Virus record (IMG/VR): IMGVR_UViG_2778261087_000007
DNA from: a virus
Taxonomy: Duplodnaviria > Heunggongvirae > Uroviricota > Caudoviricetes
DNA: 36,849 nt
Reading direction: 5' to 3' (one strand)
Below, piece after piece: positions 5,488 to 10,340 of this stretch (position 1 is the stretch's first letter; every line of letters starts with the position of its first letter). A program made the translations under genes and the position numbers. The notes under the pieces are model-generated. The model worked only from the letters and a program-made list of their open reading frames with translations. It made no database searches and had not been told where the DNA came from.

Positions 5488-5643
5488 ACCATTTATTTCT
5501 GATGTGTTGTTGTTTTTTGATGTAATACACAAATTTAACAAAGTGTATGCAAGGCTGTTTAATATGCCATTCTGTAGTTATATGATCCCGGACGACCATA
5601 AGGGATACTGCACTGCAGTGTCTTCTCCCTTGGAAAACCTTTT

Positions 5644-5676
5644 CTGCCATACATTTGTATGGCAGGCTTTTTTTTT
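5644..5676. terminator. strong hairpin plus T9 run (plus-strand orientation) in minus-strand operon
   Basis: 9-bp stem ctgccatac/gtatggcag, 4-nt loop, then gc and 9 T; overlaps the stop of the DUF1353-like gene. Confidence 0.4.
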
Positions 5677-6059
5677 CAGCAACAGGTTCCCTGCTGCGTG
5701 TCGCTGTATTTCCCTTTCCCGAACAACCTTACCGCAAGATACATCAACCGTCTGCGCCAGCGTGGAACTCCCAGCACCGTCATCGCATCCAGAAATATCC
5801 TGTCCGCTTCCGCCTTCGTGCGCAGGGCATTGTCATACAGCCAGTCATGAATAATCGCGGCTTTCGCATAACGACCATGCGGCGGGAACAGTGCCCACAG
5901 AAGCCGGGGCACACTGGCAAGGTCCGTCACATATCCCTCCGGAACATAAATCACATCATCCGGGTTATCCGTCAGCCAGAATTCAAACGGCTCAACCAGC
6001 CGCCAGCGGTAATCATCCAGCATCTCCAGAATGGCCGGTGTGGTGAACTTACTCATCAT
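5676..6059 (-). CDS. DUF1353-like protein
   Basis: Motif YVTDLASVPRLLWALFPP...AAIIHDWLY recalls the DUF1353 family often found next to phage tail-fibre genes; start at MMSKF, overlaps the tfa stop. Confidence 0.5.
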   Translation of the reverse strand: MMSKFTTPAILEMLDDYRWRLVEPFEFWLTDNPDDVIYVPEGYVTDLASVPRLLWALFPPHGRYAKAAIIHDWLYDNALRTKAEADRIFLDAMTVLGVPRWRRRLMYLAVRLFGKGKYSDTQQGTCC

Positions 6060-6660
6060 CACCCTCTGGCCAGCCAACAGGATACGCACGAATATCCGGC
6101 AGTGCGGTCAGCCCTGCCACTTCTTCTTTCATCCGGCGCTGGCGTTCGTGGATTTTAAACCCCTGCATCACCATTGCCGCATTCATCGCAGTATCCAGTT
6201 GTATCAGCTCTTCCGGCGTCAGAGTGACATCCTGATTATCCGCATCCGTCCAGAAAAAATGCTCCGGCAACAGCCCGTTTCCTGCCACCGCAACAACAGG
6301 TGTCAGTCTGGACTGTGACGCCTTTCCGGCATCCCAGCGATGACCACTGAATTCAAAAACAAAACTGCTGTTCTCCTGGCTGTCACGCCAGCGACTGATT
6401 TCACCGTATTTCTGATTTCTGGCCTTTTCCAGTATCTCCTCTGTCACCACAAACGGCGTGACTCCACCCCAGGCCCCTGATATCAGTCCTGACCAGAGCC
6501 TTAACCCGAATTCTGTCGGGTCTGAAGCTCTGGCAGTATAAGGTACATATACCCGATGACTGTCATCAGAACGGTCTGCCATGAACACCTCACAGGTAAT
6601 GCTGCCATCTTCATTAAAACGGGCATTGCGGACGTCCGCTTCTGAATTCCTGGTATCCAT
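6049..6660 (-). CDS. tail fibre assembly chaperone (second copy)
   Basis: 203 aa immediately after tail fibre 2; C-terminal region typical of Tfa chaperones. Confidence 0.7.
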   Translation of the reverse strand: MDTRNSEADVRNARFNEDGSITCEVFMADRSDDSHRVYVPYTARASDPTEFGLRLWSGLISGAWGGVTPFVVTEEILEKARNQKYGEISRWRDSQENSSFVFEFSGHRWDAGKASQSRLTPVVAVAGNGLLPEHFFWTDADNQDVTLTPEELIQLDTAMNAAMVMQGFKIHERQRRMKEEVAGLTALPDIRAYPVGWPEGDDE

Positions 6661-8228
6661 TATTTCACCCTCAGAAAAAGCATTTTCTCTTCAGCTTCTG
6701 CATTTCCGCAGGCCATCCAGATTCCTGACTGTACCGGGTCAAGCCGCTCTCCGGCCAGTTCATCTCCGTAACTGACCGCATCCTGAGAAGCACAGAACAG
6801 GTAACTCCCCACTCCACCGGCTACCGGACGACCGGCGAACTGCCACCATGGAGTGGTACCCAGTCCGCTGTAAGCCCTGATGAATGCCTGTCCCATACAG
6901 TTAAGGAAAATCTGACCTGAAACATTCTCATTCGTCGGCACCTGCCACATCAGACCATATGCATAATTCCCCGCGGCACCCGGAACGGGGTGGTCTTCAC
7001 AGGCAAGGTAGTGGTTATATTTCAGCAACGGGAACTGAAGGTCAGAATACATAAAACCATGAGCCAGAATGCCCGTGAATTTTTTCGCAGTCTTTATCCC
7101 GTCTTCCGGGTAAACTCCGCTGGGCCCCATGGGTCCCTGAGGCCCCTGAGGGCCGGTGGCTCCCCGGGCACCGGTATCACCTTTATCGCCTTTCTCACCT
7201 TTTTCTCCCTGAGGCCCGGTATCGCCCCGGTCCCCTTTCTCTCCCTTTTCACCACGGGGGCCCTGTGGGCCGGTCTCCCCCTGCGGTCCCGGCTCTCCCT
7301 GTGGTCCTGGCGTTTTAGCAATCTCCCTGGCCTCCTCCAGTGCCTTCAGCGCCCCCTGCTCATGTTCACCTGCTGTCGTGGCACTGTCTGTTGCCTGGTT
7401 CGCTGACTGGCGTGTTTGTTCCACGGCCTCCTGATATGAGCATGTGGTTATCCTCAAATCTTCCCATACACCGCTTTCTGTTCTGTGAGCTAACGGTGCA
7501 ATATGACTGTGTTCATCGCATTCCGGAATGCTTTCGGCCAGGATCAGGCGATATCGGGTGACGGGGTACCCCAGGACTGTGAAACCATCCACCCATGCCC
7601 GGATACAAAGATAATCAGCACCTTCAGCAATAATGAGGGTTTCATCTTCAGTCTTTACCCTGAAGCCGGCAATATAGGCGGTGCCACCGGTACAGGTCAT
7701 CACATCATCCTTAACGGTGATGCGTCCACAGTCATTAATAAAAACGTGATGTCCGTAAAAATCGTGCAGTGTTTCGGCTCTTGTACTGGCTTCAGCTTTC
7801 AGCCATGAAGTGATATCCAGTTGCCAGCTCTGAGGGGGAACAGTAATATTCGCAGCCCTGGCCATTCCCTTATAAGCCAGGACAAAATTGCGTATTAATG
7901 TTTCGCCCTCCAGTTTTTGCCTTACCGGGGTGGTGATAATACCGCACAGTGTTCTGCCTGGCTGATGTACAAGACAAATACGGTTATATGTAAACTCCCT
8001 GACATCATGACCAATTGTCACGCTGCAGATAATGGCATCCTGATTGAGACGGCTGTATGTCAGCTCTGTGGCAGCAAATGTTATCTGTGAGTCTTCCGGA
8101 TAACTATCCGTCAGCATTGACTCGTTGTCTGATAAAGTAAAAAGAATGGCATCCGGTCTTGCCGGAATATTATCTGCAACGCAGTCAGCCATCCATTTTT
8201 CAAATGATTTGGTCAGCAGGGTGCTCAT
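6660..8228 (-). CDS. tail fibre protein 2 with collagen-like Gly-X-Y tract
   Basis: 522 aa; N-terminal 200 aa homologous to tail fibre 1 ([12 protein letters not shown]...PARPD vs MSTVITRQYEHW...PARPD); about 21 uninterrupted G-X-Y triplets. Confidence 0.8.
7116..7310 (-). repeat. collagen-like G-X-Y coding repeat inside tail fibre 2
   Basis: Residues about 307-371: [64 protein letters not shown]. Confidence 0.85.
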
Positions 8229-8247
8229 TTTTGATTATCTCCGGTTT

Positions 8248-8775
8248 TTATTTTGTTTCCGGTACAGCAGGCCAGTTAATTGCCTCAAAGTTATCCTTAT
8301 TATCAATGTCTGAAATATTCAGAGAATTAAGCTCACGGATATACATCATCCACTGAGTGAGTTTAAGCCTGTCATCGTCACTGATTATTCCAAGACTGAG
8401 CTCTGTCTGCCAGTCACTGGTAATACTCCTGGCTTCTGACAGTAACCTGTTGCGTTGTGTTTCAGCCTGTTGCCGGTAATCAACAGGAACCGGTAATATC
8501 TCACCATCCCTGTAATACCAGCGAGCCTCAATACAGAACCCTTCAGGAAGTTCGTCAACCTCCACAATGGAGAAACCTGCCGGATAGAGACGTGAAGCAT
8601 CCTCCGCCATGGAGTAAATCACTCCGGTGTCCGGATGAATGCACAATTTATATTTCTTCGTGAATTTATTGACAGAATCATAAAAATCCTGACCATCCTC
8701 ACTGCAGAAATACTGGATACCATCACCATAAGGCATGTCTTCAGGGTAATAGCGTGAAACGTTTCGGAGTTCCAT
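8248..8775 (-). CDS. tail fibre assembly chaperone (first copy)
   Basis: Start at MELRNVSRYY (ATG 8775, SD-like AAGGGA upstream); directly downstream of tail fibre 1. Confidence 0.7.
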   Translation of the reverse strand: MELRNVSRYYPEDMPYGDGIQYFCSEDGQDFYDSVNKFTKKYKLCIHPDTGVIYSMAEDASRLYPAGFSIVEVDELPEGFCIEARWYYRDGEILPVPVDYRQQAETQRNRLLSEARSITSDWQTELSLGIISDDDRLKLTQWMMYIRELNSLNISDIDNKDNFEAINWPAVPETK

Positions 8776-8786
8776 AATGTTGTCCC

Positions 8787-10340
8787 TTAACCGGATATGG
8801 TGCGCCATGCACCATTAATATAAATCTGTTTTGCTTTGTAATAGACACCGCCAATATTATCTGCAGAATGTGAGCCAGTTTCCTGAACGTTAATACCAGA
8901 AAGCACACAACCTGCCGGGGCACGGAATGTCCAGGAAATTTCATTACCACCTGGATTGTGAAAGGTTTCGTTTGTGTACTGTTCGTTCTGTACATAGCGG
9001 GCATCAGCTGCAGCCTGCGTCATTCCCGCTGAAATGGTGATATCCTTCGTACCATCAAATGCAACACCATTTATTTTTCGTGCGTTCTGTAATTTTGTGG
9101 CGCTGCCGGCATTACCGGTTGTGTTCTGGTTGCCCTGGGTATTCACACCCGGGAGACTGATATCTCCTGAACCATCAAAACTGACGCCGCCGATTTTCCT
9201 GCTGGTTTTTAATTTTGTAGCCGTACCTGAATTGCCTGATATATCGGTGATTGTAATATCTTCCGACAGTTCCTTACCGTTGACTTTCCTTGTTGACGGA
9301 ACGCGACGTTTTGCCTCATCCATAGCGTTCTTTACGGCTTTGGGAGTGGCGGCACGATCTTCCCTGTCACTGTCTGTATCACTGCAATATTGCGCAAATC
9401 CCTTTTCGTCCAGCGTGGCGTCAGGGTGATTGCGTGAGCGCACGTGGGCTGCCAGTGCATCGCTGTTTTCTTCATCAGGTGTCTGTGGACGGACATCCTC
9501 AACATGACCGGCAGATAATACTGCCAGTGGTGCAACATAATGTCTGAATCCGTTATTATCGGTGTACTCTTCAGTTACCAGGCGTGTATTCGTATTCCCG
9601 GCGTCTGGTTGTCTGGCAGTAAATACAAATACCGTTTTCCAGCAGCCTGATACATGTCCCTGCCAACTGGCATCAATCAGAATGATGTCATTTTCAGAGG
9701 CGGTAAGTGTGAAGGGCTCCGTTAACTGAACACGCAGGCCACCGATATAAGCCACACCGGCACTGATGGTAGCTGTGCTGTTAATGGCATCGTAACTGAC
9801 ATGCAGGCTGTTACCCAGACATGCGGCATCACCATAGTAATCAAAGGCCAGCAGACGACGCGATTCATCCATTCCTGTCAGTCTGGCAGTAAAATCAATC
9901 TGCCAGACGTCAGCGGTGACGTTTACCTGCATGGCTTCGGCTGCCCCTTCGAATTCCATGGCGAATGTGCGAATCAGGTTATTGCCCTGAATGCCATTGG
10001 CGGTCCTGATTTTCTGCTGTAGTGGTGTATGGGCAATCATACACAGTACATGGCTTTCTTCGTGATACAGCCCAATCCAGTTATATTCAAAATCACCTGC
10101 GGTGGTGTCCAGAATCACGGAAAATGCAACCGTATCAGGTTCAAGCATGCCGAACTGTGTTACCGGAACGCGGCAGACAATATATTTTTCATCCGGCAGT
10201 TCTTCATCCACCGATATCGGTGCACTGATATCCATATCCGGAATGCAGGCAAAGATAAAAGTGTCCGGTCTGGCCGGTTCGTTGCTGATAAGCTGGTTTG
10301 CACACCAGTGCTCATATTGTCGCGTAATTACCGTGCTCAT
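8787..10340 (-). CDS. tail fibre protein 1 (P2 gpH-like)
   Basis: 517 aa; contains HPDATLDEKGF...AATPKAVKNAMDEA matching the P2 gpH motif RHPDASLTAKGF...AATPKAVK; two ATKL..R.I.GV.FDG fibre repeats. Confidence 0.85.
   Translation of the reverse strand: MSTVITRQYEHWCANQLISNEPARPDTFIFACIPDMDISAPISVDEELPDEKYIVCRVPVTQFGMLEPDTVAFSVILDTTAGDFEYNWIGLYHEESHVLCMIAHTPLQQKIRTANGIQGNNLIRTFAMEFEGAAEAMQVNVTADVWQIDFTARLTGMDESRRLLAFDYYGDAACLGNSLHVSYDAINSTATISAGVAYIGGLRVQLTEPFTLTASENDIILIDASWQGHVSGCWKTVFVFTARQPDAGNTNTRLVTEEYTDNNGFRHYVAPLAVLSAGHVEDVRPQTPDEENSDALAAHVRSRNHPDATLDEKGFAQYCSDTDSDREDRAATPKAVKNAMDEAKRRVPSTRKVNGKELSEDITITDISGNSGTATKLKTSRKIGGVSFDGSGDISLPGVNTQGNQNTTGNAGSATKLQNARKINGVAFDGTKDITISAGMTQAAADARYVQNEQYTNETFHNPGGNEISWTFRAPAGCVLSGINVQETGSHSADNIGGVYYKAKQIYINGAWRTISG

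Follow-up and report, generated by a model that had tools for sequence, protein, structure and literature searches.

A second tail fibre with a collagen-like stalk and its own candidate chaperone in an HP1-like Escherichia coli prophage

The phages HP1/HP2, ESSI-2 and P2 encode one tail fibre. In them, a fibre gene with a PF12571 anchor and a gpH fibre repeat, followed by a gene for a Tfa-type chaperone (orf31/orf32; gpH/gpG), occupies the operon position after the baseplate genes J and I. The locus analysed here, from a 36,849-nucleotide E. coli prophage sequence (IMG/VR record IMGVR_UViG_2778261087_000007; this whole stretch is termed the window), is alike in all these respects, but between the chaperone gene and orf33 it carries a further fibre gene, whose product has an anchor paralogue of its own and is accompanied by an unrelated helper. 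It seems that the two fibres, referred to as fibre 1 and fibre 2 in their order of transcription, are made together and dock at separate baseplate positions, which would give the particle two receptor specificities; a probability of roughly 0.6 is assigned to this reading.

The ingredients of this arrangement have counterparts in described systems. EPclA-D, the side-tail-fibre collagen proteins of enterohaemorrhagic E. coli (EHEC) prophages, form trimers with a genuine collagen triple helix, as shown experimentally (Ghosh et al. 2012, PMC3368898). Like fibre 2, these E. coli prophage proteins combine a low-complexity coiled coil, a Gly-X-Y stalk and a globular C-terminal domain, and the donor proteins described below belong to the EPcl class. 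However, EPcl proteins begin with a lambda Stf-type PfN domain (PF08400) and are encoded by siphovirus-type prophages, whereas fibre 2 carries an HP1-type anchor in a myovirus and gives no match to PF08400, a domain that its collagen and tip relatives do have. In addition, EPclA/B possess the C-terminal trimerisation domain PfC (PF06820), whereas the fibre 2 tip is without PfC and falls into a small family that has no name, a situation also described for EPclC/D, the minor architectures (PMC3368898). Two fibre tips with their own chaperones in a contractile-tailed temperate phage are also typical of the Mu G-segment, the P1 C-segment and similar systems, and the first chaperone of the present locus is a homologue of Mu U; yet the Mu G, P1 C and Min switches comprise an invertase and inverted repeats, whereas the present locus has neither, its modules are co-oriented and its fibres are complete. 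Shigella phage Sf14 is an earlier example of a simple Mu/P2-like baseplate that bears two sets of fibres, which are proposed to affect host range (PMC11821841). Sf14 differs in being virulent and, according to the same paper, in having no homologues of the Mu fibre chaperones (PMC11821841); the likeness is one of description, the present lineage being known from its genes alone. With regard to the second helper, DUF4376 genes likewise lie directly downstream of the fibre gene in Campylobacter CJIE1, as the partner of the H-fibre, and in Alteromonas phage V22 (gp27), where co-expression is needed for a working fibre and where members of the family have been reported as required fibre chaperones (PMC7882524, PMC7289586); a comparable role may be envisaged here by analogy.

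All genes of the locus lie on the minus strand, in the order tape measure, DUF2590, J, gpI-like, fibre 1, chaperone 1, fibre 2, DUF4376, DUF1353 and homologues of HP1 orf33-35. The baseplate gene J (10969-12153) is followed by a gene for a gpI-like baseplate/tail protein (10346-10972), which matches PF09684 (Tail_P2_I) weakly and phrog_1228 at E 2.6e-77. Fibre 1 (517 residues, 8787-10340) starts 6 nucleotides past the I stop codon, and thus directly after J and I, with chaperone 1 behind it (8248-8808; gene callers place the start at 8775, with a product of 175 residues). Fibre 2 (522 residues, 6660-8228) belongs to the same operon, one module further downstream of J and I than fibre 1; its ATG lies 19 nucleotides past the chaperone 1 stop codon and is preceded by GGAG 10 nucleotides ahead. 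The start of the gene for the DUF4376 protein (203 residues, 6049-6660) overlaps the fibre 2 stop codon (TAATG), and that of the gene for the DUF1353 protein (126 residues, 5676-6056) overlaps the DUF4376 stop codon (ATGAGTAA), making these two a translationally coupled pair. No convincing terminator was detected on the coding strand between fibre 1 and the DUF1353 stop codon. The four open reading frames that the initial annotation had located in 6049-10340 are all present, on the minus strand and without interruption. Its description of two tandem modules, each a fibre with an assembly chaperone, needed one amendment: there are indeed two co-oriented fibres, each with its own helper and with starts that overlap or are closely spaced, but the second module consists of three genes, the DUF1353 gene (5676-6056) having been overlooked.

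The same annotation had argued that no invertase is present and that the locus is not an inversion switch, and both points were borne out; its reading of the fibres as dual host-range determinants is likewise supported, as far as sequence can bear on it. A tblastn search with Mu Gin returned nothing below E 7 (positive control 2e-131), and no resolvase domain was found in ten early-region open reading frames of 107-845 residues, which include all those of invertase size. Long inverted repeats flanking the modules are also absent; the longest repeats are 19-26 nucleotides with 73-89% complementarity, and they are scattered. Because there is neither an invertase nor a pair of inversion repeats, and because the modules are co-oriented and each fibre is complete with its own N-terminus, expression of the two fibres should be simultaneous rather than alternating.

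Comparison with relatives indicates how widespread the arrangement is. A single fibre and one Tfa gene lie between the I-like gene and orf33 in all six deposited relatives that were read (HP2, ESSI-2, ev239, YenM_324, SI7 and a Photorhabdus prophage), and HP1 gave a single fibre match by tblastn. Searches with the full-length fibre 2 protein were dominated by collagen matches. Residues 1-306 of fibre 2 retrieved some 130 clusters, their sources being E. coli, Salmonella, Yersinia and Plesiomonas, and the order J, I, fibre 1, Tfa, fibre 2 (usually then DUF4376 and orf33-35) was found in six of six hits whose context was examined, the Yersinia contig ending within fibre 2. The one complete RefSeq genome that was checked shows the identical J-I-fibre 1-Tfa-fibre 2 order, and the prophage of Escherichia albertii has a second PF12571 protein at the same position. 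Judging from these gene contexts, the two-fibre layout is a trait of a lineage spanning at least four genera (Escherichia, Salmonella, Plesiomonas and Yersinia) and not a local duplication, and its recurrence across these genera argues for a maintained function over a recombination relic.

The anchors themselves form two separate clades. Fibre-1-type anchors are 64-100% identical within their clade and 35-49% identical to the fibres of single-fibre phages, while fibre-2-type anchors are 41-90% identical within theirs and 22-33% identical to anything else. The fibre 2 anchor of the window (residues 1-145, 7794-8228) is 41-47% identical to other second-fibre N-termini, from prophages of Escherichia, Salmonella, Plesiomonas and Yersinia (50-58% by BLAST over residues 1-147), and 28-33% identical to the fibre 1 and single-fibre N-termini compared. 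The separation into two clades implies that the second anchor diverged from the fibre 1 anchor long ago as its paralogue and did not arise by recent duplication. Among 50,697 deposited phage genomes, none contains a fibre-2-type anchor, and tblastn with residues 1-262 matched only HP1-like single fibres, at no more than 31% identity. The neighbouring baseplate genes were also compared. The J protein has 394 residues in two-fibre prophages and in their closest single-fibre relatives, and 382 in HP2. The gpI-like protein has 208-214 residues in two-fibre prophages (L018, L024, L025 and L002) versus 175-202 in six single-fibre relatives (L003-L006, L029 and L030), the 10-20 extra residues lying at the C-terminus. 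It is possible that this longer C-terminus represents a second docking element, which makes the gpI-like protein a candidate fibre-docking partner.

Both fibre genes appear to be maintained. An inactivating lesion in one of them, the outcome of resequencing that the initial annotation had named as contrary to its proposal, was not found: both open reading frames are full length in 10 of 10 independent E. coli assemblies with an identical J protein. Relative to the window, the ratio of nonsynonymous to synonymous polymorphism (pN/pS) across the 10 assemblies amounts to 0.21 (fibre 1), 0.13 (fibre 2), 0.12 (DUF4376 gene) and 0.05 (DUF1353 gene), and both fibres are under purifying selection. A disruption of fibre 2 in some isolates had been considered because gene calls are missing in L011-L013; these proved to be gaps in the index.

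Fibre 1 has the architecture of an ordinary fibre of this phage group, namely an N-terminal anchor, a repeat resembling gpH and Mu S, and a distal tip. The anchor matches PF12571 (DUF3751) at 82.2 bits (cut-off 23) and the repeat matches PF03406 at 50 bits, while a stretch of 70 residues is 49% identical to P2 gpH (E 5e-13), which accounts for the gpH-like motifs recognised earlier. In the PDB, fibre 1 matches the Mu S structure 5YVQ_A and the short-tail-fibre tip 9CUY. It has the same Pfam content as the single-fibre orthologues, a similar length and no additional adaptor domain, and homology identifies it as orthologous to the one fibre that HP1-like phages encode; its N-terminus is 37-49% identical to those of HP1-like phages with one fibre. 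Its chaperone is a member of the Tfa/Caudo_TAP family (PF02413, 75.6 bits), with matches to the Mu TfaU/TfaMu structure 5YVQ_B (E 2.5e-18), to Mu U (E 1e-23) and to P2 G (E 1e-21).

In fibre 2, a related anchor is joined to different distal parts. The two fibres align over residues 1-285 only, at 29% identity (E 3e-29), and nothing aligns beyond, in agreement with the proposed homologous N-termini and unrelated distal parts. PF12571 scores 20.4 bits in fibre 2, below the cut-off of 23 bits, while PHROG tail-fibre families match at E 1e-48 to 2e-39. Beyond the anchor come the short remnant of a coiled coil, a collagen-like stretch of 66 residues and the tip. The collagen-like tract (residues 308-373, 7110-7307) consists of 22 uninterrupted Gly-X-Y triplets, one more than the approximate count given before, and is far above chance (Pfam Collagen, PF01391, E 7.5e-16); the residue at X is Pro in 9 triplets, and the tract is rich in Glu, Asp, Lys and Arg. 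In one related prophage (L007, fibre gene at 13926-15494), the triplet KGD is lost and GPT is gained 20 residues downstream, with the count staying at 22 and the frame kept, which looks like slippage by triplet units or recombination under a length constraint. The tip (residues 374-522, 6663-7109) has no Pfam match and is predicted to be a beta-sandwich receptor-binding domain, with a fold that resembles phage receptor-binding tips. An exhaustive search placed it in a small unnamed family of 25 clusters among 1.84 billion representatives; the indexed search yielded one cluster only, owing to its word index.

The distal part of fibre 2 has a traceable source. A segment of 1,886 bp (5513-7398) matches a side-tail-fibre locus in E. 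coli, that of the lambdoid prophage L001, at 96.4% nucleotide identity. The match begins at about codon 278 of fibre 2, inside the coiled-coil remnant, takes in the collagen tract and the tip as well as the DUF4376 and DUF1353 genes, and stops 26 nucleotides short of the orf33 start. Over the part of fibre 2 that begins at residue ~278-281, the amino-acid identity to a lambdoid 'prophage tail fiber N-terminal domain-containing protein' encoded after gpJ is 94%. On this level of identity, the distal part of fibre 2 together with DUF4376 and DUF1353 is a recent copy across morphotypes, from a lambdoid (siphovirus-type) prophage into a myovirus. Strains whose lambdoid prophages share the segment of tip, DUF4376 and DUF1353 (95-99%; hits H1-H14) come mostly from cattle, calves, buffalo and farm environments, sources that hint at the place of exchange.

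The DUF4376 protein matches PF14301 at 69.8 bits (cut-off 25), and its gene lies directly downstream of fibre 2. Neither BLAST (E 0.27) nor hhalign (probability 0.7%) relates it to chaperone 1; it shows no match to PF02413 and no BLAST match to Mu U or P2 G, and finds nothing in the PDB at E <= 1 except a chance xylanase. DUF4376 proteins beside other second fibres are 37-41% identical to that of the window over their full length, and the second fibres linked to them share a C-terminal motif, G-S-x-L ... G-T/S-Y/W-x-A-L ... L-F-x-R-I/V. In the contexts examined, the DUF4376 gene was seen only beside fibre 2 variants bearing this motif. Second fibres without a following DUF4376 gene are those of L021 (518 residues) and L031 (619 residues) and the split one of L002; the sequences of L021 and L002 were read and lack the motif as well. 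In view of the transfer of DUF4376 together with the tip, its co-occurrence with one tip motif and the precedents in its family, the DUF4376 protein is most likely the cognate chaperone of the fibre 2 tip. It has been stated that DUF4376 is a conserved C-terminal domain of Mu U/TfaMu (PMC7882524), and the window protein was accordingly considered as a diverged Tfa domain; this idea found no support, since the TfaMu structure 5YVQ_B matches chaperone 1 (E 2.5e-18) and the DUF4376 protein has no detectable similarity to it. Some second-fibre slots are organised differently. In L021 (7001-8557) and L031 (2650-4509) no helper gene follows the second fibre, and these fibres may fold without a separate chaperone. 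In the E. albertii prophage (L002, 14075-16015), a fibre-2-type anchor protein of 285 residues is followed by a separate open reading frame of 352 residues without a Pfam match, and no DUF4376 gene is present; this slot could be a split, two-part fibre or a decayed one.

These observations are best accommodated by a model in which both fibres, as trimers, would be expressed together from the late operon without a switch. Each would be folded by its own helper, the Tfa-type chaperone in the case of fibre 1 and the DUF4376 protein in the case of the fibre 2 tip, and both would be mounted on the baseplate via their paralogous anchors, most likely at separate positions, the separate conservation of the two anchor clades suggesting separate docking partners. 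Fibre 1 would be the primary fibre, inherited from the ancestor, and fibre 2 an accessory one that can be exchanged and differs in receptor specificity. Joint presence in the virion, separate docking sites, receptor binding by the tip and a role in host range are what we infer from the genes. Several points weigh against such a model. The role of the fibre 2 anchor rests on its homology to fibre 1, with PF12571 just below threshold (20.4 versus 23 bits); the longer gpI C-terminus, which is the sole candidate for second docking, is a small difference confounded by shared ancestry; the imported segment brings a hairpin into the late operon upstream of the essential baseplate genes orf33-35; and no particle of this lineage or of its close relatives has been observed. 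A more elaborate version, in which a dedicated second socket (the diverged anchor paralogue, perhaps with the extended gpI C-terminus) captures tips from unrelated phages, so that the particle bears twelve fibres of two kinds and the second slot turns over far faster, is tentative.

Other ways of using, or not using, two fibres have to be weighed against docking at separate positions. The fibres might compete for the same six sockets, yielding particles with either fibre or a mixture and thereby bet-hedging without a genetic switch; both start with one domain family, which is the baseplate anchor in P2 and R2 pyocin (PMC7882524), and the unchanged length of J (394 residues; 382 in HP2) offers no obvious new socket protein. 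Such competitive or mosaic assembly is nonetheless unlikely, as the two anchor types are just 27-33% identical and each is conserved separately across genera, as distinct partners would yield, and the gpI-like protein is consistently longer in two-fibre prophages. Branched receptor-binding complexes exist in some other phages, and the constant position of fibre 2 downstream of fibre 1 and its chaperone would suit an arrangement in which the fibre 2 N-terminal domain attaches to fibre 1 instead of the baseplate. That N-terminus, however, is homologous to a baseplate anchor, and fibre 1 carries no extra adaptor domain compared with its single-fibre orthologues, which leaves a branched fibre improbable. 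It is still harder to regard fibre 2 as unused, whether it is taken for a passenger, for a cassette of spare parts such as a reservoir for recombination, or for a remnant of the lambdoid exchange. Although its distal two-fifths are nearly identical to lambdoid prophage DNA and the cassette includes a non-structural-looking DUF1353 gene and a hairpin, the fibre 2 anchor is of HP1 type and not of the lambdoid PF08400 type, the second-fibre slot has been kept in four genera or more, no lesion interrupts the gene in 10 assemblies (pN/pS 0.13), collagen indels preserve the triplet register, and fibre 2 has a good ribosome-binding site and coupled downstream genes.

The locus is a fairly ordinary case of phages widening or swapping their host recognition, and it does not overturn current understanding. 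Unrelated phages are known to exchange fibre modules in mosaic fashion, and prophage fibres of collagen-like type, DUF4376 helpers and phages with two receptor-binding proteins are known already as well. The combination found here, in which an HP1-like lineage with two fibres has a second anchor paralogue of its own, appears to be undescribed, neither a deposited phage nor a paper on it having been found in a literature coverage that was incomplete; the joining of an HP1-type anchor to a collagen tip of EPcl type likewise appears to be new. If both fibres are on the particle, the lineage provides a natural example of a small P2/HP1-type baseplate with two receptor-binding systems, whose second position readily takes tips from lambda-like phages; if, in addition, there is a dedicated second socket, it would constitute a modular natural device for host-range expansion across phage morphotypes. 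Engineering of phages and tailocins could then draw on a second anchor that is already available and on several pairings of a tip with its chaperone, and the arrangement would help to explain how prophages move between hosts in cattle-associated and other E. coli. The fibre 2 stalk would be a compact triple helix that does without hydroxyproline, like those already studied in EHEC prophages. With the DUF1353 gene, furthermore, the tail-fibre cassette includes a probable phospholipase A2, whose family has recently been connected with the typhoid toxin islet.

The DUF1353 protein (5676-6056) matches PF07087 at 114 bits. TtaP, the phospholipase A2 of the typhoid toxin islet, is a member of this family and has a catalytic His/Asp dyad with an adjacent Asp (PMC11525133). 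His70, Asp71 and Asp85 of the window protein occupy the TtaP catalytic positions by published numbering, and the protein is probably a TtaP-like phospholipase A2. A sequence search against the PDB gave chance matches only, the assignment resting on Pfam and the published TtaP work. PHROGs names the family 'tail assembly chaperone', a label that is probably wrong. Between the DUF1353 gene and orf33-35, within a gap at 5488-5675, lies the GC-rich hairpin (5643-5666) that was imported with the lambdoid segment. It has a 10-bp stem flanked by A9 and a T-run; the T-run is 3' on the plus strand, and the tail on the minus (coding) strand is AAAAGGTTTT. Other two-fibre prophages have no comparable gap, as their DUF4376 gene overlaps orf33.

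The window as a whole comprises a complete temperate HP1/ESSI-2-like E. coli prophage (Peduoviridae) of myovirus type with serS adjoining (1-1293), and its gene set includes a P2-family capsid, terminase, portal, tape measure, DUF2590, baseplate J, gpA, Dam methylase, Cox, Ogr and integrase; NCBIfam provided no useful names. By J identity (59-63%), the nearest deposited phages are Cronobacter ESSI-2, the Escherichia ESSI2_ev group, Yersinia vB_YenM_324 and Salmonella SI7, with HP1 and HP2 next after the ESSI-2 group, and the nearest species-level relative is the E. albertii prophage, whose J is 81% identical. A megablast search of the locus against the 50,697 deposited phage genomes gave no match. 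The exact prophage is present in none of 5,426 complete RefSeq E. coli genomes, 42 of which contain relatives at ~74% nucleotide identity, while many draft assemblies of E. coli encode J and fibre 1 proteins identical to those of the window, J being indexed in 241 blocks of the collection. One E. coli assembly (GCA_031626895.1; L010 and L011) has two copies of the prophage, one of them apparently truncated at the capsid end. Across assemblies, toxin genes of the hok/gef or YafO type lie beyond the prophage end, and the integration site varies among related prophages, being serS here and tamB or yfiO elsewhere.

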